The notes beneath the pieces were generated by a model that saw only the letters and a list, made by a program, of their open reading frames with translations, had not been told where the DNA came from and made no database searches. From Phycisphaerae bacterium (lineage in GTDB: Bacteria; Planctomycetota; Phycisphaerae; Sedimentisphaerales; UBA12454): a stretch of DNA of 64,000 nt. Shown here piece by piece: positions 12,347 to 49,581 of this stretch. Every line of letters starts with the position of its first letter. Within the stretch, counting starts at the first letter, position 1. A program made the translations under genes and the position numbers. The DNA lies in NCBI GenBank assembly GCA_041661665.1, contig JBAZTW010000004.1, positions 5,121 through 69,120 of the forward strand, written 5' to 3'.

Positions 12347-12352
12347 ACACAA

Positions 12353-34224: not shown

Positions 34225-35823
34225 TCAGGCGCAGCATTCATTTTGCTGTTTTTGTGACAACGGCCACTTATCGTGATTTTCAGCGTAAGCATTTTTAAAC
34301 GCTTCTACCACTTCCGGGTCGAATTGAGTGCCTGCAAGGCTTACAATTTCGCTTATTGTGTCGTCTGCGGATTTGGGATTGACGTTCCAGTGTTTGGAAG
34401 TCATCGCGTCAAAGGTATTTGCGACAGCGAGGATTCTTGAGCCAAACGGGATATTCCTGCCGACTAAGCCGTTGGGATAACCTGTGCCGTCGAAATTTTC
34501 GTGATGATGGCGGATAATAATCGCTTCCTGATTGAATATGCCTATTGGAGTGATAATTTCAGCGCTGGAAATCGGATGCCTTTCAACGATTCTTCGCTCG
34601 TCATCGGTAAGAGCCGTATTCTTTCGCAGGATATGATTTGGAATAATAATTTTGCCGAGGTCGTGAAGAGCCGCCGCTGTTGCAAGCTGTTCTGCCAGAA
34701 CTCCGGAAACATTCATTTGCTTTGCAATCGCCGATACATATATTTTTACATTCTCAACGTGCCGGGCAAGATAATCGTCCTTTGCCGCGATAGCTTTCGC
34801 AAAGGCCGTTATCATACCGATAGTCTGAGATTTTACCTGCTGTGCGAGCGTTGATATTTTTGTTTGAAGTTCGCGGAAATCTTCGCCCTGATGTTCCTGA
34901 ATATGTTCGTCGGGATTGACCTGGTCGTAGGAAACAACGCAGTTTCTGCCGCGATGTTTGGCGGCATACAGTGCATCATCCGCTTTTCTGATAAGCTCGT
35001 AAGGGTCGGTAGTGTCGGCGCCGTCAAAAACGGCAACGCCCACGCTGCACGTAACAGATATGGGTTTGTTGGCGGCTTCCCAGCTATATTTGTCAACCAT
35101 CGAACGCAGCTTGTCAGCCCTCTGTGCGGCAATTTCGACAGGCATTCCGGGCATAACAACGATGAATTCCTCGCCGCCATAGCGACCTGCAATATCGAGA
35201 GGATAGATATTTTCGTTGAGAATTTTGCCGACCTGCTGAAGAATTCTATCGCCTGTCAAATGGCCGTATGTATCATTTACATTTTTGAAGTGGTCAACAT
35301 CAAACATCATAACCGCGATTGAACCGCCGCGGATTTTCGCCTGAAGAATTTCACGTTCGAGAATTTCAAAAAAGTGTCGTCTGTTTGAAAGCCCCGTTAG
35401 TTCATCGGTATTGGCAAGCAAAAGCAGCCTTTCCTGAAGTTCAATCATTTGCAGAACTATGCCTATTCTCGCCTGAAGTTCGCCCTTGTTAAAAGGCTTG
35501 GTTATGTAATCTATCGCGCCGAGTTTAAGCCCTGCGATTTTGTCCTCGCTCTGGTCTTTTGCGGAAACAAAAATTATTGGAATCGAAGAGGTGCGAACAT
35601 CCGCCTTTAATCTCCTGCACGCCTCAAAACCATCGAGGTCGGGCATCATTATATCAAGAAGAATAATGTCAGGCCGCTGTTCCGCCGCGAGCGCCAGCCC
35701 CTGTTCAGCGCTTTCCGCCAGCAGCACAACAAGCCCCATATTGCCCAGATGCGCCTTGAGAAGAATAAGATTCGCCTGGCTGTCGTCAACTACAAGAACT
35801 TTCCGCTGCTTTTTTATTTTCAT
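34225..35823 (-). CDS. REC-GGDEF-HD-GYP c-di-GMP signalling protein
   Basis: 'VLVVDD', 'LLDIMMP', 'DELTGL', 'RYGGEEF', 'LHDLGK', 'HHENFDGTGYP'. Confidence 0.92.
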   Translation of the reverse strand: MKIKKQRKVLVVDDSQANLILLKAHLGNMGLVVLLAESAEQGLALAAEQRPDIILLDIMMPDLDGFEACRRLKADVRTSSIPIIFVSAKDQSEDKIAGLKLGAIDYITKPFNKGELQARIGIVLQMIELQERLLLLANTDELTGLSNRRHFFEILEREILQAKIRGGSIAVMMFDVDHFKNVNDTYGHLTGDRILQQVGKILNENIYPLDIAGRYGGEEFIVVMPGMPVEIAAQRADKLRSMVDKYSWEAANKPISVTCSVGVAVFDGADTTDPYELIRKADDALYAAKHRGRNCVVSYDQVNPDEHIQEHQGEDFRELQTKISTLAQQVKSQTIGMITAFAKAIAAKDDYLARHVENVKIYVSAIAKQMNVSGVLAEQLATAAALHDLGKIIIPNHILRKNTALTDDERRIVERHPISSAEIITPIGIFNQEAIIIRHHHENFDGTGYPNGLVGRNIPFGSRILAVANTFDAMTSKHWNVNPKSADDTISEIVSLAGTQFDPEVVEAFKNAYAENHDKWPLSQKQQNECCA

Positions 35824-35866
35824 ATCTGCACACGCGCTCTAAAGGTTAGTAGTTTATATACGGTAT

Positions 35867-35893
35867 TTATCGACTTATTTTGAGGCCATATTA
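35867..35893 (-). promoter_or_regulatory. Putative sigma-28 (FliA)-type promoter
   Basis: TAAT-N15-GTCGATAA vs consensus TAAA-N15-GCCGATAA, 44 nt upstream of the start. Confidence 0.45.
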
Positions 35894-35997
35894 AGCTATT
35901 TATCACACCATTTTTTAACTTTAACCCGCATTTTCAGTACAAAAAACGCCTTTTTTAAACAAATAACGAAAAAAACCTGATATAAAGACACTTTTGT

Positions 35998-36026
35998 TTG
36001 ACAAAATAATCCTTTATACCTATATT
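35998..36026 (+). promoter_or_regulatory. Sigma70-type promoter
   Basis: TTGACA-N17-TATATT. Confidence 0.65.
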
Positions 36027-36176
36027 TAGCGGCAGATTAGAGATTCGGATTGCAGGTGTCAGGCGGAGGCGCAGTCTCAAAGGTCGTTGTGGACTCCAAT
36101 TCCAATTGCATCACTTTTACTTTAGCCGCTAATACAAAAAAATTGAGAAACTCATTTAATTTTATAGGAGAAAGAA

Positions 36177-37583
36177 ATGACAGCACCTAAAGTTAGCGTA
36201 ACATTTATTGTATTCACCCTTATTGCCTGTTCATCAATTTCAAAGGCCGCAGACCCAAATAGCTTTCCTATCTGCAGATGGACGGGAGAGCAAAGTTATC
36301 CGGCAGTCAGCGGCAGCTACGTTGTCTGGCAGGACTATCGTTCAGGCTACTATAACATTTTTCATAATGACCCTGATAATACGGGCAATGTAGATGGTAT
36401 TGGAATTGATATTAGAACAAAACATCAAAAATTTCCTGCTATCAGCGGCACAAGAGTTGTCTGGGAAGATTTTCGGACAGGTACCAACTCTCCAAATATT
36501 TATTACTGTGACTTGTCATCTGGTTCACCTACAGCGTTAAACTTTATTATCGGTGAACAAACATATCCAGCCATAAGCGGTACAAATATTGTTTGGCAGG
36601 ATGTCTACAGCGATGCCGGTGATATTTACTGCAATGGAAATCCAGCGGGAATTTGTGTACGCAGCGGCGAACAATCGTACCCTGCCATCAGCGGTAATAT
36701 GGTGGTTTGGCAGGAGATTATCAGCGGCACTGACAAAGATGTTTATCGTTATCTTTTGCCATCTGGACCCAGAACATCGGTATGTTCTCTTGTCGGCAGT
36801 ATACAGGAAAAACCGGCCATAAGCGGCAATTATGTTGTCTGGCAGGATAATCGCAATGGCGATTCTGATATTTATGGCAGGGATATTTACGGGCAGGAAT
36901 TTGAGATTTGCAAATATGCCGGCAGAGAACAAATCAATCCCGCTATCAGCGACGATATAGTGGTGTGGGAAGACTACCGCAATGGTTTAAACAATGCCGA
37001 TATTTATGGCTACAGAATTTCAACGAAGGAAGTATTCGCAATCTGCAGAAGTTCCGGCCACCAAAAGAATCCCGCAATCGACTGCAACTTCGTTGTTTGG
37101 GAGGATTATCGAAATGGCAACGCTGATATTTACGGAGCGTATATCCCTGAGCCTGCTCCACTTCCGGTTATTACCGTGCTTGACCCCAATGGCGGCGAAT
37201 CACTGCCGGCAGGTTCAAAGCACTGGATAAGATGGAAAAACAGCGGTTCTATCAGCCGTGTGAAAATCGAAGACTCAAATGATAATGGTCTGACTTTTTC
37301 TGTAATTGATGCGAATGTTGCAAATAATGATAACGGCGAAAGTGTATATCTTTGGACAATACCGGCAGACGTGAATTCGGAGCAATGTCGAATAAGAATA
37401 AGCGATAAGAGCGCTCCCGACATCAACGATACCAGCAATAACGTTTTTACGATTTTCCAGTGCGACCAATCGCTTACAGCCGACCTTAGCGGCGACTGCA
37501 AAGTTGATTTCACAGACTTCGCTTTATTCAGCGGACAATGGCTAACCTGCGGCAATCCCCACGACCAAAATTGGTGCCCGTAA
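36177..37583 (+). CDS. Secreted beta-propeller repeat protein (Methanosarcina surface-protein type) + Kre9/Ig-like domain + dockerin-like C-terminus
   Basis: Seven 'Q..PAISG..VVW.D.R....DIY' repeats; 'V..PNGGE.L..G...I.W'; 'ADLSGDCKVDFTDF'. Confidence 0.85.
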   Translation: MTAPKVSVTFIVFTLIACSSISKAADPNSFPICRWTGEQSYPAVSGSYVVWQDYRSGYYNIFHNDPDNTGNVDGIGIDIRTKHQKFPAISGTRVVWEDFRTGTNSPNIYYCDLSSGSPTALNFIIGEQTYPAISGTNIVWQDVYSDAGDIYCNGNPAGICVRSGEQSYPAISGNMVVWQEIISGTDKDVYRYLLPSGPRTSVCSLVGSIQEKPAISGNYVVWQDNRNGDSDIYGRDIYGQEFEICKYAGREQINPAISDDIVVWEDYRNGLNNADIYGYRISTKEVFAICRSSGHQKNPAIDCNFVVWEDYRNGNADIYGAYIPEPAPLPVITVLDPNGGESLPAGSKHWIRWKNSGSISRVKIEDSNDNGLTFSVIDANVANNDNGESVYLWTIPADVNSEQCRIRISDKSAPDINDTSNNVFTIFQCDQSLTADLSGDCKVDFTDFALFSGQWLTCGNPHDQNWCP

Positions 37584-37692
37584 GAATTTGAAAGACAATG
37601 AAATAAATAAAAGCTCTGGTCTTTTTAGTGGAAAACGTATAAATCAGCAAGGCAGTTTAGGCCAATGGCCGGTTCCAAATTCTATCTTCTGA

Positions 37693-37962
37693 TTATTTTT
37701 CCTCTGGAGATGTAGCTTTCGATTTCATATAGGCCTTTTCCATATAAAACCACATAAAATATCCCCAGAAGATTCCACCAATAGGAAGTGTAATTAGATT
37801 GATTGGCAGCATTTTCAGAAAAGATTTATCGCCTATAATAGAGGAAAAAAAGGCGGCAAATATCGCGCTACCAATACCCCAAATCAGCACACCATGTTTA
37901 ATTATATAATTCCATTTGCCTTTTTGGCGTATCTTTTCCCACTTAGCGAATTTGTCAGACAT
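37693..37962 (-). CDS. Small membrane protein, two TM helices
   Basis: 'WEKIRQKGKWNYIIKHGVLIWG' followed by hydrophobic segments; RBS aaggag. Confidence 0.65.
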   Translation of the reverse strand: MSDKFAKWEKIRQKGKWNYIIKHGVLIWGIGSAIFAAFFSSIIGDKSFLKMLPINLITLPIGGIFWGYFMWFYMEKAYMKSKATSPEEK

Positions 37963-38030
37963 TTGGTTGCTCCTTATATTTACTAACTATATATTACCCG
38001 AAAACAATCAAAACAGCAAGTGGATAAATG

Positions 38031-38075
38031 GGCTGATTCCGCAATTTTTATTTTTTATCTTTTATTTTTGATATT
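38031..38075 (+). repeat. Family A repeat, degenerate
   Basis: ctg-attccgc-aattttttattttttatcttttatttttgat. Confidence 0.45.
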
Positions 38076-38163
38076 CATCATTCCCTATATCCGCGTCCGG
38101 CAGGCGTTTTTAAAATAAAAACTATTTTGCATCCCTGTATTCTTGTGGTAAAATCCAATTGAG

Positions 38164-39237
38164 ATGGATACCGCAAAAAATTTCAATCCTGATACTATTT
38201 TGCTCTGGGATAAAGTATCCGGCAGCTTCGAAGCCCAGAGAATAATCAGTCTGTTCAAAAATGCTGAGGTAAAAATAATCACCGAGCAAAAGCTGAAATA
38301 TGCCGAACCAATATCCGCAGAACTGGCATTGCGAAAAAGCAAAAAAACTTTGATGATTGGCGAAACATCCTCATTCATAAATCAATTCGATGGCAATATC
38401 GGCGAAAACATGAGGTGTTTTCCTTATTATAAATTAGTCCCGCTTTCAAACGGCTGCCCATACAACTGCGTCTATTGCTATCTCGCCTATGTTTATAGAA
38501 AGTACGGCGCTTTTATAAAAATGAATATAAATTACGATAAAATGCTTCGGCAAATCGATAGACTCGCCAAAAATAACCCGCACAAAATTTGCTTCAATCT
38601 TGGCGAAATGCTCGACAGCCTTGCGCTCGACCACATCACAAACCTGACAACAATGCTTGTCCCGCTTTTTAGAAAATACGAAAACAAATATCTGATGATG
38701 CTGACAAAAAGCAGCAATATCGACAATCTTATGAAAATGAAGCCTAATCGCCAAATTATCGTTTCGTGGAGTCTTAATCCGCAGATAGTCATTGACAATT
38801 TTGAATTTGGAACTGCCTCACTTGACGAAAGATTAGCCGCCGCGAAAAAATGTCAGGAACTTGGCTACAGAATAAGATTCAGAATCGACCCAGGCATTCT
38901 CTGCGACGACTGGAAAACCGCCTATGCCATGTTAATACAGAAAATATTTGACCGCACAGAACCGGAAAACATCACAATTGGATTGCTGAGGCTTTTCAAG
39001 GGGCACATAAATCTATCCAAAAAAGCTTATGACTTAAAAACATTTGAGCATCTGCCGGAAACCGCCAAAGACAATAAACTGCGATATCCTACCGAACGCT
39101 GCGTTGAATTTTATGAACATTTAATTAATGTTATACTTGGTTATAGCAATAAAACCAGCATAGGAATATGCAGAGAAAGTCAGGACATTCTTAACCAGTT
39201 GAATTTCAAAACCAGCACCTGCAACTGCATTGCATAA
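38164..39237 (+). CDS. Radical SAM protein, spore photoproduct lyase (SplB)-like
   Basis: CxxxCxxC (CPYNCVYC), 'GEMLDSL', 'TKS', 'WSLNP', 'ASLDERL.AA'. Confidence 0.8.
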   Translation: MDTAKNFNPDTILLWDKVSGSFEAQRIISLFKNAEVKIITEQKLKYAEPISAELALRKSKKTLMIGETSSFINQFDGNIGENMRCFPYYKLVPLSNGCPYNCVYCYLAYVYRKYGAFIKMNINYDKMLRQIDRLAKNNPHKICFNLGEMLDSLALDHITNLTTMLVPLFRKYENKYLMMLTKSSNIDNLMKMKPNRQIIVSWSLNPQIVIDNFEFGTASLDERLAAAKKCQELGYRIRFRIDPGILCDDWKTAYAMLIQKIFDRTEPENITIGLLRLFKGHINLSKKAYDLKTFEHLPETAKDNKLRYPTERCVEFYEHLINVILGYSNKTSIGICRESQDILNQLNFKTSTCNCIA

Positions 39238-39246
39238 AATACAGAT

Positions 39247-40086
39247 TCATTCATTGCCTTGAATCAATGAGCCATAATATTCATAAGTATATGTATCATT
39301 GTTGTTTTGCTTTGAATACACTCTGTGTGTAACATTTCTACTCTCTGGCTCATTATCTATTTGCCTGACTAAATCTTCATTATACTTATCCTGAACAATC
39401 AATATTCGCCCATTTGGGGCACAAAGTTTTTTTATGTTTAGTATTTCAGAGTGAATATTGATATCTTGTTCGGTTAAAGGTACTACTACATATGAAAAAT
39501 TTGCAATATTGACTGTACCCAGATTTTTAAAAATTCTTTCAATTTGGGGCATTGTTTTAGGAAATGGTCTTTCCAGAAAAAAAGCGTTGCCCATAAAAAT
39601 ATTATGAGTTCTTCCGCTCAATTTAAAATAATCAAATAATATCTCTTTACCAAGCCCCAAACATATATCAGAAGTATCATTTAACAAAAAATTTAATTTC
39701 ACTTTATAAGCAATACTTCTCTGCTTTGATAAAGCATCCATAATACAAGAGAACATATCCGCTATCGCCAGTGAAGCTACCGCCGGCCCAGAACCAATAT
39801 CCATAACATTTATACAATTGTCAGAAACTGATCCCAGAAAAAATTCAGATGTCATATAATCCAACAAACTGTCTTGTATTTGAAAATAATGCCTTGCAAA
39901 AAACTTATCGAGATAAGCTCCCATACCATCTTTTGTTGTAGGATATCGTTCTTCAGTTTCTGCAACATCTCTGCAAGGAAATCTGGCTATGATATTCTTG
40001 TAAATCGATAGCATAAAATCACTAAAATGCCAAATTCCATCAGAACATAATTTTTCCTTTACATTATCTTTCAAAATATTATTCAT
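39247..40086 (-). CDS. Putative class I SAM-dependent methyltransferase
   Basis: 'MDIGSGPAVASLA' motif I and 'NFSYV' motif IV-like; AT-rich. Confidence 0.55.
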   Translation of the reverse strand: MNNILKDNVKEKLCSDGIWHFSDFMLSIYKNIIARFPCRDVAETEERYPTTKDGMGAYLDKFFARHYFQIQDSLLDYMTSEFFLGSVSDNCINVMDIGSGPAVASLAIADMFSCIMDALSKQRSIAYKVKLNFLLNDTSDICLGLGKEILFDYFKLSGRTHNIFMGNAFFLERPFPKTMPQIERIFKNLGTVNIANFSYVVVPLTEQDINIHSEILNIKKLCAPNGRILIVQDKYNEDLVRQIDNEPESRNVTHRVYSKQNNNDTYTYEYYGSLIQGNE

Positions 40087-40104
40087 AGTAAAATCTCCTT
40101 TGTT

Positions 40105-40374
40105 CTACATTCCACTGCCATTTCCTATATCCGCATCGGGCAGGCGTTTTTCGATTGCTCGCAGGCGGTATTCATAACCAACACTGGCTGTGTTCAGATG
40201 CTCAACCTGCTGCTGAAATTGTTTTTGCGATTCTAAAAGTCTGTTTATATCGCTTCGCAAAAGCAGAAGCTGATTTTGCAGATTCACCCATGTGCCTACA
40301 ATCAGCGAGGCGAGAAACACAAGCTGAATAAGCACAGAAATATCAATCTGTTTTATAAATCGCCAGTTTTTCAT
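40105..40374 (-). CDS. Small TM + coiled-coil protein at the end of the head module (holin/XhlA-like topology)
   Basis: One N-terminal TM helix then a heptad coil; RBS aaggtg. Confidence 0.6.
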   Translation of the reverse strand: MKNWRFIKQIDISVLIQLVFLASLIVGTWVNLQNQLLLLRSDINRLLESQKQFQQQVEHLNTASVGYEYRLRAIEKRLPDADIGNGSGM

Positions 40375-40422
40375 TTCATCACCTTAAAAAATAGCCACAG
40401 AGAACACAGAGAAATAAGTTTT

Positions 40423-40447
40423 GTAGGGTGGGCTCTTAGCCCACGCT
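40423..40447 (+). repeat. Family B REP-like palindrome, empty form
   Basis: gtagggtgggctcttagcccacgct. Confidence 0.8.
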
Positions 40448-40451
40448 GCAA

Positions 40452-41114
40452 TTATCCTCTTGTAAGTTTTACACTCGCTCCGCTGCTGACAGAATCGCTT
40501 TGGCCATCATCGCCCAAATCTACGGATACCTTGCATCGCTGCAATGCCTTTTCATAAAGGCCGGTATAGTATTGGCTCTTTTCCCAAAAACTTTTCGTTT
40601 CATCGTTATCGCTGCCGCAAAGAGTCGCGTAAATTATCGAAAGCGTTTTATAAACCGCCGCCTGCCTCAACACCGAAACATCGAGAACATCATCAACGCT
40701 GTATTTGCTGTCAGGATTGCCAGGCCTCAAATCAAAATACGCTGCAAGATGCAAAAACACCTCGCTGCTCTGCGGCTGATAACTGCAAACTCGATAAGTT
40801 ATCGCCGAGCCGTCAATAAGCGCGATTGGAGCAGAGGCATTATCAGCACGCAAAACGGAAATAACAAGCGAAGTGGCGCTTCCAACCGAAACAATCTCAT
40901 AAACTCCGTCAATCGCACCATCAGCGGATTTTAGATATATAACCATCCCCGCCGTTATTTGAGCCGCGTTAAAATCCGCACCTGCCGCTGTGAACGTCGT
41001 GCCTGCGATAACACCATCGCTGCCGCTTGCCAGAATCTGATTTGCGAAATACAAATCGTCGAACAAGCTTGGCTCATACCGCAAAATATCAACATCATTT
41101 GAAAAAGTATTCAT
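40452..41114 (-). CDS. Putative head-tail adaptor/connector protein with inserted beta domain
   Basis: Directly follows the capsid gene; N-terminal 'FS...DI' helix and 'LRQAAVY..L..IY....K..YY..LY..AL' helical bundle typical of adaptors. Confidence 0.6.
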   Translation of the reverse strand: MNTFSNDVDILRYEPSLFDDLYFANQILASGSDGVIAGTTFTAAGADFNAAQITAGMVIYLKSADGAIDGVYEIVSVGSATSLVISVLRADNASAPIALIDGSAITYRVCSYQPQSSEVFLHLAAYFDLRPGNPDSKYSVDDVLDVSVLRQAAVYKTLSIIYATLCGSDNDETKSFWEKSQYYTGLYEKALQRCKVSVDLGDDGQSDSVSSGASVKLTRG

Positions 41115-41133
41115 TTTTATATCCCTTTAAAAT

Positions 41134-41302
41134 GGCTGGGTGTGGAGCAGTCTAATCTTTAAGGTATCATTATTTTTTAGATGTCCATACCCAGCCGACT
41201 CCTCAGAAAACCGCGTGGGCTAAGAGCCCACCCTACGCAAACTGGATTCCCGCTTTCGCGGGAATGACAAGCTTGTAGGGTGGACAGCTTGCTGTCCACG
41301 CG
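41134..41302. repeat. Composite palindrome cluster in the capsid-adaptor gap
   Basis: 13-bp IR 41134-41196; family B copy on - (41211-41236); ctggattcccgctttcgcgggaatgac (41242-41268); family B copy on + (41275-41302). Confidence 0.8.
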
Positions 41303-41307
41303 TGCCG

Positions 41308-42462
41308 TTAATTCGTTGACAAGCCCCTGATAAGCCCGTGCGCTGATTCATTCTTGAACTCGAGCGTGTATTCGCCAATGAGCTGGCCGCACTCATAATC
41401 TCCGCTGCTTGCTAAAGGTTTGAAGTGGAAGCTCCTGCCGGCCAGAGGCAGCACGCCGATGCGCGATGAATCGAGAAGCAGAACAGCGTCCTGCGGAACG
41501 TATCTGCTGGCAACGATTTTGCAAACACCGAAATCGCTTTCATAAACGCTTACCATATCCTTGTAAGCGGTATCCGAGGCGCCGAAGCTTCTGCTTGCGG
41601 TGAGGAACGAATTGATTTTGCGTTTCTGAAATCCGCCAACAACAATCAAATCGACGCTGCCGCTGCTGTTTTCCCAAATCTGCCGCAGAACATAGTTAAT
41701 CATTTCCTCCGTCAAAGCGCTGCCCGTCGGAAAACCCGAATCGCCCGCAGAATAAAGGTGCGTCGCGATGTGCGGCAGAATACCTTTCATACTCCTGCGA
41801 ACAGATGCCGAACCCTGCGGATTTGCGGAAGGCCTGCCGCCATTGATTACCGTGTTCTCAAGGTCGCGAATCATCTCCCGCAGTCTTTCCGATTTCTGAT
41901 AATCCATCTCACCGGAAATTCCCAGATGATTTGCCGCGATGTTTGTGCCGCTGACCTCGACCGAAGCGGTGAAAATCTGCGTGTAATTTCCGCAGCGAAC
42001 ACGATTGGTAAATCTCGCGGCGGGCTTGTCGTCGCCTTCGAGAGCGGCATTGCCGAGAATGTTAATCACCTGGCCGGTCGCGATATCTTCAGCAGTTGTG
42101 CCTGCGTATCCGCGAACAACCGTAATCGTATTTCCGCTCACGCTGGAAACGAGCATCAGTTCCGTTGCTCCTGCAACCTGAATCTGGTCGCCTGCTCTGA
42201 ATCTGCCGCCGTTTGCGACATCGAAGCTTGTCTCGCCGTCCGGGTCGCTGATTGAACTATCGCTAATCGCGTCCTTGTTCGGCACAAGCGAATCCTCGAG
42301 CCATTCGTGATATGTACTCTGTGCCTGCCGAAGCGGGTCGCCGATTGCGTCGAGCAGCGGAGTCTCGTAAGGCGACACGATGCCGATAAGGTCTGATACG
42401 TCTTCCGCAAGTTCAGGCAGATTAGTGCCCGCTGAATATGTTGCTTTTCCTGTAAATGCCAT
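41308..42462 (-). CDS. Major capsid protein, DUF5309/SU10-like HK97 fold
   Basis: 'EDVSDLIGIVSPYETPLL', 'HEWLED', 'N.TQIFT..V.VSGT', 'YQ....L.E..RDLE...I.G', 'R.M.GI', 'Y.SDFG', 'G...GEYTLE.KNE.AHG'. Confidence 0.85.
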   Translation of the reverse strand: MAFTGKATYSAGTNLPELAEDVSDLIGIVSPYETPLLDAIGDPLRQAQSTYHEWLEDSLVPNKDAISDSSISDPDGETSFDVANGGRFRAGDQIQVAGATELMLVSSVSGNTITVVRGYAGTTAEDIATGQVINILGNAALEGDDKPAARFTNRVRCGNYTQIFTASVEVSGTNIAANHLGISGEMDYQKSERLREMIRDLENTVINGGRPSANPQGSASVRRSMKGILPHIATHLYSAGDSGFPTGSALTEEMINYVLRQIWENSSGSVDLIVVGGFQKRKINSFLTASRSFGASDTAYKDMVSVYESDFGVCKIVASRYVPQDAVLLLDSSRIGVLPLAGRSFHFKPLASSGDYECGQLIGEYTLEFKNESAHGLIRGLSTN

Positions 42463-42524
42463 TTTTATTTCCTTTCAATTATTTTGTTATTTGTGCCTTT
42501 GTGGCTTTGTGCCTCTGTGCCTTT

Positions 42525-43040
42525 TTACATAAAACTTCTTCTCGTCCGCAGGTACTCCTGCAAATCCGTTCTTGAGCCGGTCTTTGCCGCTTTCTTAGCC
42601 GACCGCTCAATCGCTCCTGCCGTTGGTGACAGCCGTTCCTTAACTCCGCTTGTTTTACTTGTCGCAGCAGAAGGCAAGTTGTCCGCAAACAAATAGCTTT
42701 TCTCTTTCTTCAATTGCGTAACAATATCCGCCGCTGTTGCCTGCGTATCAGCCACAAGCTTTGCCTTGCCGATAATCACTGCCGCGTCAAGGTCTCGCAC
42801 ACCCGATGCCGCCAGCTTCTCAATCAACTGCCTTTCAATGGTCATATCTGAAAGACTTTTATTAAGCCTCTCAACCTCGGCTTTGCTCTGATTGAGTTCC
42901 TGCTCAAGCGTTGTCTGTTTCTGCTCCGCGCTCTGCGCCCTTTTGCGATAGCGAATCGCTTCACTGACATCAACTAACCTTTCGCTTCGCTGCTCTTGTT
43001 CGTCTGAACCATCAATTTTTTCTGCGTCTGTCTGACTCAT
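42525..43040 (-). CDS. Phage capsid scaffolding protein
   Basis: Lies between portal and MCP; charged coiled coil; 'QLKKEKSYLF' motif typical of scaffolds. Confidence 0.7.
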   Translation of the reverse strand: MSQTDAEKIDGSDEQEQRSERLVDVSEAIRYRKRAQSAEQKQTTLEQELNQSKAEVERLNKSLSDMTIERQLIEKLAASGVRDLDAAVIIGKAKLVADTQATAADIVTQLKKEKSYLFADNLPSAATSKTSGVKERLSPTAGAIERSAKKAAKTGSRTDLQEYLRTRRSFM

Positions 43041-43064
43041 CTTTGAACCCTTTCAATTTTTTTG

Positions 43065-43090
43065 GTAGGGTGGGCTCTTAGCCCACGCGG
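43065..43090 (+). repeat. Family B REP-like palindrome, empty form
   Basis: gtagggtgggctcttagcccacgcgg. Confidence 0.8.
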
Positions 43091-43095
43091 TTTTT

Positions 43096-44616
43096 TTAAT
43101 ATCCAAGCTCTCTCAACACCGTTTCTTCCGGCACACCAAGTTCCTTTTTGAGTTTCGCTTCATTAAGTTTTTCAAGCGTATTCTCAGGCAGCGGACTTGG
43201 AAAAATCACATCAAAATTCCTCTCATCCTTACTGTTCGGATAAATCCCCGTCGCATCAAACATCTGCATTACCATCGCCGCGATTTCCTTAATCCCCTGA
43301 CCATACACAAATCGCTTTCTGTCGGTCTTGGCCAGCATTCCCATCAGCGTCATTCGCAGCGCGACAGCGCTCGTCAAATTTCCAACCTTGTTTTTCAGAA
43401 TGCCCGCAGCGACAGGCGTTACGCCGCTGGCCTTATCCATCGCCTCTCGAATCTGGTCGATGTGCGTATCCTCGCTGGGCATAACCGCGTCGCCGCCGAA
43501 CTGCTCAATCGCGGCATCAGGATTATCCGTACACCAAATCCGACCCGGCGAAACCACACGACCATCAACGCCCTCAATCCCCTTGGCAAGATACATCTTG
43601 AACGCCTGAAAAGTTATCCTGCTGGCGCGGTCGCTCAACCGCGTATTCAATTCATCCTGCAAAGCAACCAGCGGCTCAACATCGCTCACTCCCTCGTAAT
43701 ACAGTGGCTGAGCGATATTCTGAATATGCACGACAGGCACAACGCCCATCACGTTCCGCCCTTCTGCCGTAAGCTCCTTCTCCTCATACCTCTGCCAGAA
43801 ATCCGCCGCGATGATTTCCGTAACCGCCGCTGACTGCCTTGCCGAATTCCTTCCTCTGCCGCCTAAAAGTCTGCGAATGAAATTCCCCTCGCTTGCCACC
43901 TCGTTTTTCTGCTCGATGAAATGCTGAACGTAAAAATTGATTTTCCTGTAATCCTTTTCATCAAGAACAGGCAGCGCTCTTGGCGCTTCAATCAATTCCA
44001 GACCGCAATCCGAAACAAGTTCCATTACACGTTGTAGGGGCAGACCTGTGTGTCTGCCCAATGAAGAAGAATTTGAAACTTCAAATATCTTCTGCCCCGG
44101 CCTGACAACGCAATCCACGAACCCATAAACCGCGCCGAGCGTTGCCATATCCTGAAAGAATCGCACTCCGCCGTTTGCGTAGAATACTTCTTTGATGATT
44201 CTGTCGATTTCGCCGCGGCGGTTTTTATCTTCCGCCTTGCTCACGACATCAACGCTTTTGCCGAACAGGAAATCCACCATCGCGTTGATTCGCCAGCCGA
44301 TATCGTTTTCGATAACGACTTCCTTGCGTTCGATATCCGCCACTGCCCTGCCGCCGAAAAGGCCGCCCGTTTCGCTCCGCTTGATTCCCGTAATTCTCGC
44401 CGGCAAGCCCATTTCCTGTGCCTGCACATACAACCGCGCCGATTCGTTGAGTTTTGAATCCGCCGCAAGAAGCCCCGCCGTTGAATACATCGGATTTTGG
44501 TAGTAGTCCCACAGCCTGCCGAAATGCGACTGCATATCGACCCACTGCTCATCGACGAGCCAATCGACAAAGTCGGGATTTAATTCGCTCTTAAATTCTC
44601 TAAATTCAAACGCCAT
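43096..44616 (-). CDS. Phage portal protein (SPP1 gp6-like)
   Basis: 'N.IGWRINAMVDFLFGK', 'VPVVHIQN..', 'G.SD.EPL..LQDELN..LSD', 'F.SPLPEN'; 506 aa; RBS ggag. Confidence 0.85.
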   Translation of the reverse strand: MAFEFREFKSELNPDFVDWLVDEQWVDMQSHFGRLWDYYQNPMYSTAGLLAADSKLNESARLYVQAQEMGLPARITGIKRSETGGLFGGRAVADIERKEVVIENDIGWRINAMVDFLFGKSVDVVSKAEDKNRRGEIDRIIKEVFYANGGVRFFQDMATLGAVYGFVDCVVRPGQKIFEVSNSSSLGRHTGLPLQRVMELVSDCGLELIEAPRALPVLDEKDYRKINFYVQHFIEQKNEVASEGNFIRRLLGGRGRNSARQSAAVTEIIAADFWQRYEEKELTAEGRNVMGVVPVVHIQNIAQPLYYEGVSDVEPLVALQDELNTRLSDRASRITFQAFKMYLAKGIEGVDGRVVSPGRIWCTDNPDAAIEQFGGDAVMPSEDTHIDQIREAMDKASGVTPVAAGILKNKVGNLTSAVALRMTLMGMLAKTDRKRFVYGQGIKEIAAMVMQMFDATGIYPNSKDERNFDVIFPSPLPENTLEKLNEAKLKKELGVPEETVLRELGY

Positions 44617-44640
44617 AACATTTCTCCATTAATAAAAATT

Positions 44641-44727
44641 TCATCGCCGACCTGTCGCGTCGAAGCCTTTGGCGAAGACGGAAGGCGATTCCACAAATCT
44701 TCAATTTTCATTTTTCAATCTTCAATG
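44641..44727 (+). repeat. Family A repeat, filled copy with a 32-nt nested insert
   Basis: tcatcgccga[cctgtcgcgtcgaagcctttggcgaagacgga]aggcgattccacaaatcttcaattttca. Confidence 0.8.
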
Positions 44728-44970
44728 TTTCTCTACCCTTACTGGGGACTTGCGCGTTTTTATCGAAATTTGACCGAAAATTCTTTTATGCGTTTTTGTA
44801 AGTGCTTATTTGATATGGAGAAAAATTTTTTAATTTTTTTTATCCGCGCAAGTTTTTACTTGCGCAAATGGCTGATATTTTGTCATTTCGACCAAAATGA
44901 GTCCCGATTTTCGGGACGAATGAAGCGGAGAAATCTATTTTAAATCCCCCGTTTAATCTCACTATTTCCC

Positions 44971-44998
44971 TTGACAATCCCTACTTTTCGGATATACT
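44971..44998 (+). promoter_or_regulatory. Sigma70-type promoter for the PEP-CTERM genes
   Basis: TTGACA-N16-TATACT. Confidence 0.6.
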
Positions 44999-45171
44999 GT
45001 TTGTTTTGGGAAAAGAAAAAGAAGATTTTGAAGATTTTTGGAGGAAGGGAAAATGAAACACTTCGTTAATTCATCGTAAGAAGGTCACTGCGCACTTATT
45101 TTCGGTCATTCCCATGCAGATGGGAATCCACAATTAAATTTCACTAAACAATTTTCAAAGGACGGAGAAAT

Positions 45172-45978
45172 ATGTTAAAATTCAGTCTTGTGCGAAGTAG
45201 TCAGATTTTCTTGTTTTTGGTTATTTGGTTTCAAGTTAATGTATCCATAAATGCTCAAGTTGTGTATTCAAATAATTTCAACAATGGCACGGCATCGTTG
45301 TCAGATTTTACCATAAGGACGGTAGCGGGAAACATAGGAACCTACTCAGTTACTGCAGATTCTGGCCAACTCAAAATTGCCACTGGCAATACTACTCCTT
45401 GTTATGGTTTCGCAGTCATTAATACTGCAAACTTTGCTGCCCCCTACCAAACTACTCTAAAAAACAATTCCGGTCTGGTAAGCTGGTCATTTAATGTTTC
45501 AAATTTGGATGGCCAATGGAACAATTCTTTTTATTTTACACTGGCGAGCAATTCATCAGACCCATTGGTCTACACCTCAACCTCTTATGTATTTGCTGGT
45601 GGCGGGTATGTTGGCAACAGAATGATGATTTTCCGACAAGGATACAACCCAAGTGATCATACACATATTATTGATATCACAAATGGATTGCCTATAGGAT
45701 ACAATGGAAGCATTCGGATTACCTATGATCCCAAGACGGATATTTGGTCTCTTTATGGCGTATGGGGCAGTTCTTATGTTGCCCCGGAATTAGTAGCGAA
45801 TCTATTAGGGACTTGCCATGATAGTACGTACACAGGATTAAATTTACCATATATGGGGATGGGCGGTTCTACCTCAGGAATTGATTATTTTGATAATCTG
45901 ACAGTAAGTGTAGTTCCCGAGCCCGCAACAATTCTTTTACTCACCCTCGGCGGATTGGTTTTGCGAAGAAAAAAATAA
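45172..45978 (+). CDS. PEP-CTERM sorting domain protein
   Basis: Signal peptide; C-terminal VVPEPATILLLTLGGLVLRRKK. Confidence 0.88.
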   Translation: MLKFSLVRSSQIFLFLVIWFQVNVSINAQVVYSNNFNNGTASLSDFTIRTVAGNIGTYSVTADSGQLKIATGNTTPCYGFAVINTANFAAPYQTTLKNNSGLVSWSFNVSNLDGQWNNSFYFTLASNSSDPLVYTSTSYVFAGGGYVGNRMMIFRQGYNPSDHTHIIDITNGLPIGYNGSIRITYDPKTDIWSLYGVWGSSYVAPELVANLLGTCHDSTYTGLNLPYMGMGGSTSGIDYFDNLTVSVVPEPATILLLTLGGLVLRRKK

Positions 45979-46009
45979 AATATTAACAATTTTTGGAAGG
46001 AAGAAGAGA

Positions 46010-46618
46010 ATGAAGAAGAAATCGATAGTGGTCCTGTTAATTGGTTGCACAATGTCATTTCCGACATACGCTAATACCATAATAACTTTTAACACACCCG
46101 CAGTAGCATTCCAAGATGGTTATGGCCAAGGCAGGCCTTACGTTGAAGGCGACTATTGTATGTCAACAGTCAATACTCCTGGGAATTACGGTTCTATAAT
46201 AAGGTTCAATCCACTTACTCAGAATGCCCTAGTTCCAAATAATGGCACTGTACATATGGGAGTTACTTTGTTTGCAAATCCTTGGCTGCAAAAAACTGAT
46301 GGTGGTCCATTTAATCTAATCGGATTAGACCTCGCTGAATATAGCGAGTACACCAACTGGGTAAATAGCGTATCCATGGTGGGTTATCGTCAGGACGGAT
46401 CAACTCTCACTGCAACTCTTGCCATAGATAGAATTTTTGACGGATATGGTGGAGTTAACGATTTTCAGCATTATAATCTAAACTGGAAGAATCTAATACG
46501 AGTAGAATTTCACAGTACATGTTTTAGTATGGATAATATTGAAGTTCTAGCGGTTCCCGAACCGGCGACGATTCTTTTACTCACCCTCGGCGGGTTGATT
46601 TTAAGAAAAAAACGCTAA
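46010..46618 (+). CDS. PEP-CTERM sorting domain protein
   Basis: Signal peptide; C-terminal AVPEPATILLLTLGGLILRKKR. Confidence 0.88.
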   Translation: MKKKSIVVLLIGCTMSFPTYANTIITFNTPAVAFQDGYGQGRPYVEGDYCMSTVNTPGNYGSIIRFNPLTQNALVPNNGTVHMGVTLFANPWLQKTDGGPFNLIGLDLAEYSEYTNWVNSVSMVGYRQDGSTLTATLAIDRIFDGYGGVNDFQHYNLNWKNLIRVEFHSTCFSMDNIEVLAVPEPATILLLTLGGLILRKKR

Positions 46619-46636
46619 ACAAACAATCAAACCAAC

Positions 46637-46666
46637 AAAAAGGCCGGGCTAAAACCGGCCTTTTTT
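46637..46666 (+). terminator. Rho-independent terminator
   Basis: aaaaggccgg-gctaaaa-ccggcc-tttttt. Confidence 0.8.
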
Positions 46667-46729
46667 ATTTATTGCCTCAAAAGTAAAATCCCTTATAATC
46701 CCGGAAGATAAACTTATGGAAGGATAAAA

Positions 46730-47032
46730 ATGATGTATCCCGTTAGACTTTCTTGGTTTTATACCTATGTCTTAAAATGCGAAAAGACAGGTACTTTTTA
46801 CACGGGTTGCACAAATGACTTGAAACAGAGAATAGAACAGCATACAAAAGGTAAAGTCTGTTACACGAAACACAGATTGCCTATTAAGTTAATTTATTCT
46901 GAGGCCTGCTTAAACAAGGACGATGCGTATCGCAGAGAAAGATATTTAAAAACCGGAATAGGTAAAAGGTATATTAAAAACAGACTAAAGGGGTGGCTGA
47001 CTGATGGGATGAATCCCGTTAGACCTCTTTAA
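46730..47032 (+). CDS. Small GIY-YIG nuclease (UPF0213/YhbQ-like)
   Basis: 'YTYVLKC', 'FYTGCTNDL..RI.QH', 'YSE', 'A.RRE..LK.G.GK'. Confidence 0.85.
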   Translation: MMYPVRLSWFYTYVLKCEKTGTFYTGCTNDLKQRIEQHTKGKVCYTKHRLPIKLIYSEACLNKDDAYRRERYLKTGIGKRYIKNRLKGWLTDGMNPVRPL

Positions 47033-47110
47033 TATAATATATATGTTGAAAATAGTGAAAAGATAAACAAATTGTACAAATTAATAAATTTAATGGAGGT
47101 CTAACGGGAT
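47013..47110. repeat. 15-bp perfect inverted repeat (ATCCCGTTAGACCTC) around an AT-rich spacer; third direct copy at 46737-46748
   Basis: atcccgttagacctc 47013-47027 and gaggtctaacgggat 47096-47110. Confidence 0.85.
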
Positions 47111-47564
47111 GGAACAGTTTAAAATCGTCGATGACATTTTGGATTTCGCAATTGAAGGCGAGGTTGAGGCGCACAAATTCTATACCGACCTGGCGGCGAA
47201 AATGCCCGACAAAACAATGAAGCAGGTTTTTCTCGATTTCGCAGCAGAAGAACTTGGTCATAAAAAACTTCTCGAAGACGCAAAGGCAGGCAAAAAAGTT
47301 CTGCTCAAAAAAGAGCATGTCGCCGATTTGAAAATCGCCGAGTTCACCGTCGCAGTAAAACCGACGCCGAATATGAACTTCAAAGACGCTCTGATTCTGG
47401 CAATGCAGAAAGAGAAAAAAGCGTTTCAACTTTACACCAGACTTGCGGGATTGATGACCGACAAAACTGCCGCCGAACTTTTCGCCGCTCTTGCCCAGCA
47501 GGAAGCAAAACACAAACTCCGCTTCGAACTTGAATATGATGATGTCGTTCTAAAAGAAGATTAA
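47109..47564 (+). CDS. Rubrerythrin/ferritin-like protein
   Basis: Duplicated E..E/E..H diiron motifs ('EELGH', 'QEAKH'). Confidence 0.85.
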   Translation: MEQFKIVDDILDFAIEGEVEAHKFYTDLAAKMPDKTMKQVFLDFAAEELGHKKLLEDAKAGKKVLLKKEHVADLKIAEFTVAVKPTPNMNFKDALILAMQKEKKAFQLYTRLAGLMTDKTAAELFAALAQQEAKHKLRFELEYDDVVLKED

Positions 47565-47617
47565 TTTTTTTCTCTGTGAACTCTGCCTGTCCTGAGCGGA
47601 GTCGAAGGGGTGTCTTT

Positions 47618-48529
47618 ATGGCTGAAATTAAACTCTGGTTGAAAGAATTACGATTGCAGTTCTGCGTAGCAAGCGTGATGCCGGTGCTAATCGGCTCAGC
47701 TCTCGCTTATAAACAAATCGGCAATATAAATTATACGCTGGCTATCCTTGCGCTTCTGGCGACAGTCGCGTTCCAAATCGCATCAAATATCGCCAACGAT
47801 TATTTCGACCACCGCAGCAAAAATGATATTCTAAATGAAAACAGAACGCCGTTTTCAGGCGGAAGCGGATTGCTCCCAAAAGGCCTGATAGCCCCAAATA
47901 AAGCACTTATAGCCTCACTGCTGTTTTTCGCAATCGGAGCAAGTTTAGGAATTGCAATTTTAATTATCACAAAAAAACCTGCTGTGCTTGCACTGGGTTT
48001 AGCGGGAATTCTCGGCGGATTTTTCTACACCGCCGGGCCATTGAAACTCGGATACCGAACCACAGGCGAAATCATAATCGCCTTACTCTTCGGCATCCTG
48101 CCTGTTTATGGAGCGTATTACATCCAGACAAGCGTTTGGAATTTGATTCCTCTTTTGCCTTCGCTGGTCGTAGCCGTTTTGATATTTCTTGTGATATTCG
48201 CAAATGAGTTCCCCGATTTCGAGGCTGATAAAGCAGTCAACAAACGCACGCTCGTCGTAACTCTGGGCATAAACAAAGCGGCAATACTTTACAAAGCCGC
48301 ATTATTCATTCTCTTTTTTATCATTTGTATTTGTGGTGGAATAAATCTTAGCCCATCTGGCGGCGGAGTCTTGATAGTCGCACTAAACATATTGGGCGTG
48401 TATTGTTTTATAGCCGCTAATCCCAATAAATTAGCTCAAAAGAACTACACCACATTGAGCAAAGCAACAATCCTTTTACATACATTCGTCTGCCTTGCTC
48501 TTTTTATCGCGATACTAATTAGCACATAA
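47618..48529 (+). CDS. menA: 1,4-dihydroxy-2-naphthoate prenyltransferase (UbiA family)
   Basis: 'NIANDYFD', 'FYTAGP..LGY', 'NEFPD..AD....K.TL.V.LG'. Confidence 0.8.
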   Translation: MAEIKLWLKELRLQFCVASVMPVLIGSALAYKQIGNINYTLAILALLATVAFQIASNIANDYFDHRSKNDILNENRTPFSGGSGLLPKGLIAPNKALIASLLFFAIGASLGIAILIITKKPAVLALGLAGILGGFFYTAGPLKLGYRTTGEIIIALLFGILPVYGAYYIQTSVWNLIPLLPSLVVAVLIFLVIFANEFPDFEADKAVNKRTLVVTLGINKAAILYKAALFILFFIICICGGINLSPSGGGVLIVALNILGVYCFIAANPNKLAQKNYTTLSKATILLHTFVCLALFIAILIST

Positions 48530-48634
48530 CCCCTGCAATACAGGCAGTTTACCCGTATATACTGTTGTATGATGGGTCTTAAATAACATTGAATTTTCGT
48601 ATTGACATTCCGAATATTCAATGTTGGAAGTTCA

Positions 48635-49423
48635 TCACTTTCCAAGTCTGCTTGAGACATTTGTTCTATATTCGCTCTGGCCGATTTTGCCTTCGCCACG
48701 ATAACCTTTTGCGGCAATCTCCTGCTGCAGATAGCCGATTCGGTTTTCAGGATTTGGGTGCGTCGATAAAAATTCAATCGTTCGAGAACCGCTTTGCCTT
48801 TGCAGAATTTCCATCGTCTCAGTCATTCCAAAAGGTGTGTAGCCTGCCTTAACCAAATAATCCAGGCCGATTTGGTCTGCCTGACGCTCGTGTTCTCTGC
48901 TGTACGACATTCCCTGAAGCTGAGTGATAATGCTCGCGGCTGTGCCTGCCATTCCCTCACCGACTGCGCTTACGCCTGCGTTGATTATCAAATCTCTGCT
49001 CATTGTTACGGCAGAGTGCCTTGCGGTTACGTGCGCTGTTTCGTGTGCCAGAATGGACGCAAGCTGCGCCTCGGTGTTCAACACTTTCAGCAGACCTGTC
49101 GTAATATAAATATATCCGCCCGGCAAAGCAAATGCGTTGACTGTATTGGAGTCGATGGCCTTATAACTAAACCCTTCGGTCGGCGTATGGCAAACACGAG
49201 CGATACCCTGGCCGACAGAACCAATATAACTTTGAAGCTGCGTATCTTTTACGCTCTGGCCGAGTTCCTTTTCAACCTGTTTGGAATACTCAAAACCCAT
49301 TTGCTTTTGCTCTTCCGGGCTGTAGAGATTAAACTCATTTTTGCCAGTTACGGGATTAACCTGACAGCCGGCAAAGATAAAACTCAAGCCTGCTGCCGCT
49401 AAAAACAAATATAAATTTTTCAT
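48635..49423 (-). CDS. M48 family metallopeptidase lipoprotein
   Basis: Lipobox FAGC; 'NAFALPGG', HEXXH (HETAH), 'YSREHERQAD', 'STHP'. Confidence 0.9.
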   Translation of the reverse strand: MKNLYLFLAAAGLSFIFAGCQVNPVTGKNEFNLYSPEEQKQMGFEYSKQVEKELGQSVKDTQLQSYIGSVGQGIARVCHTPTEGFSYKAIDSNTVNAFALPGGYIYITTGLLKVLNTEAQLASILAHETAHVTARHSAVTMSRDLIINAGVSAVGEGMAGTAASIITQLQGMSYSREHERQADQIGLDYLVKAGYTPFGMTETMEILQRQSGSRTIEFLSTHPNPENRIGYLQQEIAAKGYRGEGKIGQSEYRTNVSSRLGK

Positions 49424-49581
49424 AAAATCCCTTTCTAAAATTCGATTTCTATTCCATATTAAGTAGCCTTATGTCGCCAAATGTCAAGTTGGAAAAAAAT
49501 TTGTTACTTTTTGCAAAAAAACAGCCACTAACTAATTTATATTGAAATGCACATCATATATAAGATAATTACCCACTTTCT

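Follow-up and report, generated by a model that had tools for sequence, protein, structure and literature searches.

A conserved capsid gene cluster of Phycisphaerae as the probable head half of a split, gene transfer agent-like system

The experimentally established families of gene transfer agents (GTAs) are few, numbering five. In VSH-1/BhGTA of Brachyspira, a domesticated cluster of head, tail, and lysis genes, the packaging enzyme is encoded outside the structural operon, and the tailed particles were experimentally shown to transfer DNA. In the Rhodobacter capsulatus GTA (RcGTA), which belongs to the viriforms of Alphaproteobacteria, phage-derived head and packaging genes are fixed in the chromosome, descend vertically in a large clade from which they are sporadically lost, are under purifying selection, are accompanied by no integrase or replication genes, and lie at more than one locus (PMC5721377). 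Phage-inducible chromosomal islands of the capsid-forming kind (cf-PICIs) encode their own portal, capsid, head-completion protein, and small and large terminase subunits (TerS and TerL), and no tail; these islands are mobile, carry an integrase along with modules for replication and regulation, and are patchily distributed and near-identical across species (10.1101/2022.09.08.507074; 10.1101/2025.02.11.637232). Here we describe a cluster of phage-type head genes (40105-44616, minus strand) in a 64,000-nucleotide window, positions 5121-69120 of contig C4, of a metagenome-assembled genome (MAG) from groundwater (G000; 2.31 Mb, 98 contigs, estimated 95% complete). The closest relative of this MAG is "Planctomycetes bacterium GWC2_45_44", among Sedimentisphaerales/Phycisphaerae MAGs. 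The cluster is probably the head half, tail-less in this genome, of a split and vertically inherited GTA-like system of Phycisphaerae. It shares with RcGTA all of the features named above, and with VSH-1 the separate packaging enzyme; VSH-1 belongs to a different phylum and consists of different gene families.

Head genes in the window and packaging genes on a second contig

The cluster consists of five intact open reading frames (ORFs), all in the same orientation and arranged head to tail (Table 1). The portal protein was of the SPP1 type (PF05133 SPP1_portal, 1.9e-16; phrog_64, 9e-21), and its sequence gave no match in the PDB. The scaffolding protein matched the head scaffolding family phrog_194 (6.8e-7) and Pfam Phage_scaffold at 24 bits, which is under the cut-off of that family. 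The major capsid protein (MCP) matched PF17236 SU10_MCP (1e-87; 294.8 bits against a cut-off of 24.1 bits), and the profile of its orthologs matched the solved HK97-fold capsids 9ny2_A (2e-39), Vibrio phage VP1 9in6_M (9e-26), and SU10 7z45_A (3e-14), so that an HK97 fold is predicted by homology. GGAG/AGGTGA-type ribosome-binding sites preceded the portal, scaffold, 220-aa, and 89-aa genes (the four starts inspected). Thus, five intact co-oriented ORFs, recognizable ribosome-binding sites at several starts, an SPP1-like portal, a scaffold, and a DUF5309/SU10-like MCP of HK97 fold, all of which had been proposed in an earlier note on this DNA made from its letters alone, were borne out by ORF calls and by Pfam, PHROG, and PDB profile matches.

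The note had also called the 220-aa protein an adaptor, and this we could not verify. No Pfam, PHROG, PDB-sequence, or GenBank-phage match was found, and a scan of the individual members of the family against PHROG returned matches with E > 0.01 only. In the AlphaFold2 (AF2) model, which was confident (pLDDT 88.7, pTM 0.85), residues 27-110 formed a beta-barrel, after which came three long helices. Foldseek gave no significant match to the whole fold; it found only the barrel, in phage fibers, endosialidases, and the VP1 capsid chain 9in6_M. A single weak BFVD match was annotated as a podovirus 'head to tail adaptor' (E 1.3e-3, TM 0.28). Orthologs follow the MCP gene in 84 loci. Because sequence matches were absent and fold matches were at the level of domains, the name adaptor is a positional guess. 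In the 89-aa protein, a hydrophobic segment at the N-terminus precedes a heptad-rich C-terminus, as judged by eye. Orthologs of this protein end the cluster in both forms described below, and it may act in release or membrane anchoring.

A weak Terminase_6N signal was observed in an ORF of approximately 490 aa in almost every relative. In this genome, the ORF lies at C33:10287-11768, and it was identified as TerL by matches to Terminase_6C (30.1 bits, over the Pfam cut-off) and phrog_2 (1e-20). Among 19 class-wide orthologs, the residues of Walker A (R77, G79, G80, K81, T82) and Walker B (D168, E169), the Q152-S153 motif, and the nuclease acidic residues D318, D375, D469, and D473 were invariant, from which a catalytically intact enzyme is predicted. 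Four cysteines between the ATPase and nuclease domains (C234, C240, C243, C249), invariant in the same orthologs, may form a zinc-binding insert. In family f105, the TerL frame was 550-700 aa long and matched in three pieces, suggesting insertions. Core genes lie on both sides of TerL: RNase P RNA (rnpB; RF00010, 284.8 bits; L035:9696-10152, minus strand) immediately upstream and a gene for a PBP2-type transpeptidase immediately downstream.

A packaging operon upstream of TerL encodes a helix-turn-helix/sigma-region-4-like protein, an ABC-type ATPase, a 254-aa protein, a ParB-N protein, and a 136-aa TerS-like protein (weak match to phrog_2538, 2.8e-4). The operon is contiguous with TerL in three distant relatives (G444, G061, and G176), and an insertion of approximately 4 kb separates the two here. 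A gene for a protein of 155-165 aa belongs to the packaging operon in this genome (155 aa), whereas in G005 and G014 it closes the head locus; this exchange of position links the head and packaging loci. A single copy of the TerL ortholog was found in 58 of 61 relatives, and 99 of the 151 genomes sampled across the class had the gene; of these 151 genomes, 86 had TerL and capsid, 13 TerL only, 3 capsid only, and 49 neither. The distance from TerL to the capsid gene ranged from approximately 10 kb to approximately 1 Mb. In metagenomic phage contigs whose capsid proteins were 35-42% identical to the MCP, a TerL 24-29% identical to that of C33 was encoded 3-6 kb upstream of the capsid gene, which argues for a common origin of capsid and TerL. 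With an intact TerL and a TerS-like gene on C33, co-inherited with the head genes, the window holds one half of a two-locus system.

The head operon is therefore not stand-alone, as it had been called, since its packaging half lies on another contig of the same genome. The statement that there is no terminase stood for the locus in the window and failed for the genome; the search for TerL and TerS that the earlier note proposed found a TerL and a TerS-like gene. Of the genes scanned in 34225-50976 (Pfam, PHROG), none belonged to an integrase, protease, terminase, or tail family. Scanned against the same two databases, the head and packaging loci with their flanks showed no integration, replication, or lysogeny-control gene of an ancestral phage; the helix-turn-helix protein is the first of the packaging operon.

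Inheritance, selection, and the x1-x8 genes

The MCP gene was single-copy in 51 of 61 relatives and present in 89 of the 151 class genomes. The identity of its product followed kinship: it was 93% among members of the genus, fell to 75-85% across the family, and was 60-75% at the level of the order. At approximately 50% identity, the protein was also encoded in a few further families of the phylum, and more than 588 species genomes encoded a relative. The order portal-scaffold-capsid-220-aa gene was kept across the order and the class. The host genes that border the cluster here, namely those for rubrerythrin (Rbr), UbiA, M48 peptidase, and a 464-aa protein to one side and for a GGDEF response regulator to the other, also border it in two further genera of the family. 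Maximum-likelihood trees of capsid, portal, and TerL showed the same family groupings and the same deep split, in agreement with the taxonomy. The checks on presence beyond a single strain, on synteny, and on tree congruence that the earlier note had asked for thus came out in favor of its view, and the homologues sit in conserved chromosomal sites and not inside complete prophages.

The ratios of nonsynonymous to synonymous substitution (dN/dS) are pairwise Nei-Gojobori estimates, which are saturated past genus or close-family distance; those of the head genes were calculated against a genome of the same genus, G001, at an unsaturated dS of 0.45-0.69. All five head genes (0.07-0.16; Table 1) and TerL (0.13) were under purifying selection, far below the value of 1 expected by the note for a remnant. 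An internal stop in the G012 gene led us to discard a TerL estimate of 0.52 (G014 vs. G012). Between genomes at family distance, amino acid identity was 83-84% for the capsid protein, whereas it was 55-79% for the products of the Rbr, UbiA, M48, and GGDEF neighbors. Phage-derived structural genes that are fixed in the chromosome and vertically inherited, as GTAs and viriforms have, were thus found here. The view of a long-resident, host-maintained capsid system, and not a fresh prophage, held up on vertical inheritance, conserved site, selection, and host repeats (see below), and domestication is well supported.

Table 1. Features of the head gene cluster and its borders, with positions in the window and dN/dS against G001
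Feature	Position	Strand	Basis	dN/dS
Portal protein, 506 aa	43096..44616	-	PF05133, phrog_64	0.098
Scaffolding protein, 171 aa	42525..43040	-	phrog_194	0.147
Major capsid protein (MCP), SU10/DUF5309 type, predicted HK97 fold, 384 aa	41308..42462	-	PF17236	0.072
220-aa structural protein (P4), head-completion/adaptor position, identity unproven	40452..41114	-	AF2 model, position	0.155
89-aa membrane-anchored coiled-coil protein (P5), closes the operon	40105..40374	-	sequence by eye	0.155
279-aa accessory gene (P6)	39247..40086	-	orthologs at same position in some relatives	
REP-like hairpin followed by T-run, directly 3' of the capsid gene, terminator-like	41215..41231	-		
555-bp non-coding spacer from the portal gene to the divergent PEP-CTERM gene, presumed control region	44617..45171	.		

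The usual layout in Sedimentisphaerales was Por-Sc-MCP-P4-x1..x8-P5(-P6), with eight co-oriented genes between P4 and P5 (long form). The products x1-x8 were about 123, 250, 150-260, 370-540, 146, 224-540, 610, and 110 aa long, respectively. In this genome and in its sister, x1-x8 were absent and the 220-aa gene abutted the membrane-protein gene (short form). No x1-x8 gene was found in this MAG by tblastn, nor by hidden Markov models (HMMs) for x1-x5, x7, and x8. A move of the genes to another place in the genome was rejected on these searches and on the identical P4-P5 junction of the sister genome. The statement that the system has no tail was therefore true of this genome, and it describes a derived state, as most relatives carry the eight additional genes. 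The delivery apparatus of a GTA or viriform was accordingly not found here.

Searches against PHROG and Pfam placed x1-x8 in no recognizable family, PDB profile searches with x2, x3, and x7 returned nothing significant, and the AF2 model of x7 was poor (pLDDT 43.6). The x genes that were tested had dN/dS values of 0.08-0.33 (pairs with dS above 0.1), indicating purifying selection. The x4 gene (L016:12539-13654 and orthologs) was hypervariable, with 31% identity compared with 60-76% for its neighbors; it was replaced or absent in many loci and gave a weak beta-helix-associated signal, and it behaves as would be expected of a receptor-binding protein. The position of x1-x8, one hypervariable member, and a weak fiber match suggest a neck/short-tail module.

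In a capsid tree of 90 loci, the short-form pair was nested with strong support in a long-form clade, and the short form required at least three changes on the tree, so that at least two lineages besides this genus lost x1-x8 independently. It was also found in two complete genomes of another family (G038 and G043). The long form occurred in a different order (G176), and a partial long form with a divergent capsid occurred in another class of the phylum (L033; G106:C1:70000-89900). At this last locus, the capsid gene (31% identity) was followed by clear homologs of the 220-aa protein, x1, x2, x6, and x7; the locus may be a prophage or a second domesticated lineage. Nested short forms and the long forms of G176 and L033 indicate that the long form is likely ancestral and the tail-less state here derived. 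When short-form and long-form pairs were compared, dN/dS was 0.07 vs. 0.03-0.15 for the capsid and 0.10 vs. 0.06-0.22 for the portal, and that of the 220-aa gene was slightly higher in the short form (0.155 vs. 0.05-0.13). The head genes stayed under purifying selection after the loss of x1-x8, about as strong as in the long form.

The gaps of the operon carry the palindrome GTGGGCTnnnAGCCCAC (at 40428, 41215, and 43070), which had 84 both-strand matches on 24 contigs of the genome, or approximately 42 copies if each was counted on both strands; the host palindromic repeats reported in these gaps are thus repeated genome-wide. The description of the flanks, with a radical SAM gene and divergent PEP-CTERM genes, was likewise accurate: the flanking genes encode an SPL-type radical SAM protein, two PEP-CTERM proteins, a GIY-YIG nuclease, rubrerythrin, UbiA, and an M48 peptidase. 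The GIY-YIG gene (46730-47032, plus strand; 100 aa, stand-alone) lies between the PEP-CTERM genes and rubrerythrin and is missing from the syntenic region of G005 and G014. The only transfer RNA gene of the window is at 12352, and none is near the cluster. In the spacer upstream of the portal gene, no Rfam family and no convincing sigma-70 site on the minus strand were found.

Orthologs of the 279-aa gene occupied the same position in about a dozen loci, with 35-46% identity, and an HMM built from them scored 327 bits on the gene of the window; the gene was absent after the cluster in the sister genome. Its description as methyltransferase-like remained unverified; it had no significant Pfam match, and a PDB profile search gave nothing significant. 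The gene product matched the N-terminal region of PADLOC RT_UG35, a defense protein of the DRT group (1.6e-8), and contains an hhDhGxGxG-like motif. The GC content at third codon positions (GC3) of this gene was very low at 0.246, compared with a genome mean of 0.474.

Functions considered for the capsid and terminase

Under the GTA-like reading, the scaffold and capsid protein would assemble on the portal into procapsids, which TerS and TerL would fill with DNA through the portal. The 220-aa protein would close or complete the portal vertex, and the membrane protein would help release the particle or anchor it. In most relatives, the particle would become GTA-like through x1-x8, which would supply a short tail whose receptor-binding part varies. 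This genus has lost x1-x8 by deletion, and its product would be a tail-less, portal-bearing capsid that is kept by selection. DNA transfer between cells is the leading candidate function and is unproven. In cultured Phycisphaerae strain ZRK32, tail-less hexagonal particles of approximately 30 nm with non-lytic release were attributed to an extrachromosomal phage (PMC10945688).

Several observations weigh against this reading. The genes alone are known, and from them particle formation, DNA content, a tail made of x1-x8, and transfer are proposed; no RNA-sequencing run was found that contains the MCP gene. The x1-x8 proteins match no family, so that 'tail' is a matter of interpretation. Where x1-x8 are missing, as in this genome, the delivery step of a classical GTA cannot work, and the presumed tail was discarded repeatedly with the constraint on the head unchanged. 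The head locus was lost or is decaying in scattered lineages and is hence dispensable: in G006, the portal gene at the syntenic site is reduced to its first 80 codons, and the MCP genes of G400 and G411 contain stops. The G006 site (L214, G006:C15:12000-31900) also has a fragment of the 165-aa gene; in G022 (L216, G022:C15:1-19900), approximately 8 kb of other DNA stands in place of the cluster. An intact TerL was found in both genomes. TerL was also under purifying selection where no MCP was detectable (f108 pair, dN/dS 0.075), and the complete genome G061 keeps TerL with no detectable MCP, which shows that the two halves are not strictly interdependent. The GC3 of the capsid and portal genes was 0.59, approximately 2 SD over the genome mean (SD 0.06), and that of TerL was 0.54, which is raised despite the ancient residence of these genes. 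Finally, the MAG is fragmented (98 contigs) and 95% complete, so claims of absence carry a margin of approximately 5%.

Tail loss, TerL without capsid, and scattered loss of the head leave room for tail piracy, an anti-phage role, or the export of protected DNA. It is possible, if doubtful, that the capsid and terminase function independently of a tail of their own, with tail-less DNA-filled capsids borrowing phage tails or acting as a packaging decoy; the particles of strain ZRK32 could be products of this kind. Rather unlikely is the proposal that they serve something other than self-contained gene transfer, in one of three versions. Tail-less, DNA-filled capsids would take tails from infecting phages, as cf-PICIs do; or host procapsids and terminase would intercept or mis-package invading phage DNA as an anti-phage device; or protected DNA would be exported and taken up by competence. 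Since x1-x8 were lost repeatedly while the head genes, the membrane-protein gene, and TerL were kept under purifying selection, the selected function does not need its own tail, and the persistence of TerL without MCP in some lineages speaks for the same proposal. On the other side, x1-x8 were kept under purifying selection in most lineages. Class-wide vertical conservation with dN/dS near 0.07 would be unusual for defense genes, which usually turn over fast, and no protein of the set convincingly matched a PADLOC model.

Tail piracy by tail-less capsids has been documented for cf-PICIs (bioRxiv 10.1101/2022.09.08.507074, 10.1101/2025.02.11.637232), and the same MAG contains a phage fragment with tail genes. 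Contig C47 (L036:1-12686) carries at its end a second SU10-type capsid gene, whose product is 32% identical to the MCP of the window, followed by tail-protein, amidase-bearing, and tail-fiber genes; this piece of a genuine phage or prophage, which was binned with the MAG, is distinct from the domesticated cluster. Piracy is disfavored by the 220-aa protein, for which neither C47 nor any of 76 related viral contigs encoded a homolog, so that compatibility with foreign tails is unsupported.

An encapsulin-like nanocompartment, in which a domesticated capsid protein encloses enzymes and not DNA, is very improbable. It would account for an HK97-fold shell protein conserved in a host chromosome. 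Encapsulins have a shell without portal, scaffold, or terminase and a cargo enzyme, whereas here portal and scaffold are conserved alongside the shell gene, a terminase predicted to be catalytically intact co-occurs, and no cargo-type gene is fused or adjacent; encapsulin was ruled out on these grounds. For the portal-bearing nanocompartment that the earlier note had listed, nothing specific was found in favor.

A mobile satellite of the cf-PICI or phage-inducible island kind, with a capsid of its own and in need of a helper phage, would match the gene content of this genome, as head and packaging genes without a tail are what cf-PICIs carry. The chance of this is slight: integrase, att site, replication module, and nearby transfer RNA were all absent, the head and packaging loci are separate among core genes (TerL between rnpB and PBP2), and the chromosomal site is the same across genera with gene trees that match the taxonomy. 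The absence of mobility genes, the split loci, and the fixed site ruled the satellite out. A decaying prophage remnant that lost its other genes and has no host function is just as improbable, for although the cluster is without tail, lysis-enzyme, integrase, and replication genes and was lost or pseudogenized in some lineages, the five ORFs are intact and constrained, the MCP is more conserved than the housekeeping neighbors, and the cluster is single-copy and syntenic across the entire class, so that selection and distribution data contradict it.

Comparison with described systems

In a full-text literature search, no paper was found on GTAs or conserved capsid/terminase systems of Planctomycetota, a phylum whose genetics is little developed. 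If the GTA-like reading is true, an independent class-wide system in this phylum widens the known scope of virus domestication and could account for gene flow among bacteria that are abundant in sediment and groundwater. The selected series of long and short forms would be a direct handle on the benefit that maintains such particles. The system also matters for virus-prediction pipelines, as IMG/VR lists at least one host-like contig with the whole cluster as viral (L119, IMGVR_UViG_3300031673_016560). Two further IMG/VR contigs (L117 and L118) had host-like capsid genes with 63-64% identity but matched few or none of the remaining genes of the cluster; it appears that all three were falsely called viral. 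The MCP did not exceed 32% identity with any GenBank phage, or 42% with true phage contigs of IMG/VR. The 220-aa protein, x1-x5, x7, x8, and the membrane protein had no detectable phage homolog; only the HMM of x6 gave matches there.

Compared with cf-PICIs, the system described here does not move, is divided over separate loci, spans the class, and passes on by vertical descent; its probable ancestral form carried x1-x8, which we read as a tail of its own. A capsid, portal, and terminase of its own with no tail, as in cf-PICIs, were observed in this genome only, as most relatives carry x1-x8; the integrase, att sites, replication module, and mobility of those islands were not observed. With loci 0.3-1 Mb apart in some genomes, packaging of the whole system in one capsid appears implausible. 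Homology to Rhodogtaviriformidae, as judged by a protease and a gene order running from TerS-TerL-portal, was not found either. The ancestry is unrelated to that of RcGTA: the capsid is of the SU10/DUF5309 type and comes with a scaffold but without a prohead protease; viral relatives are detectable only for MCP and TerL and, weakly, for portal and scaffold; TerL lies 10 kb to approximately 1 Mb from the head genes; and the presumed tail module was lost repeatedly in a system that is known from its genes. The SU10- and VP1-like phages (capsid family PF17236; PDB 7z45, 9in6, 9ny2) have a homologous HK97-fold capsid with an inserted domain, and metagenomic phages encode a related TerL upstream of portal-scaffold-MCP, whereas in Phycisphaerae TerL stands at a locus of its own.

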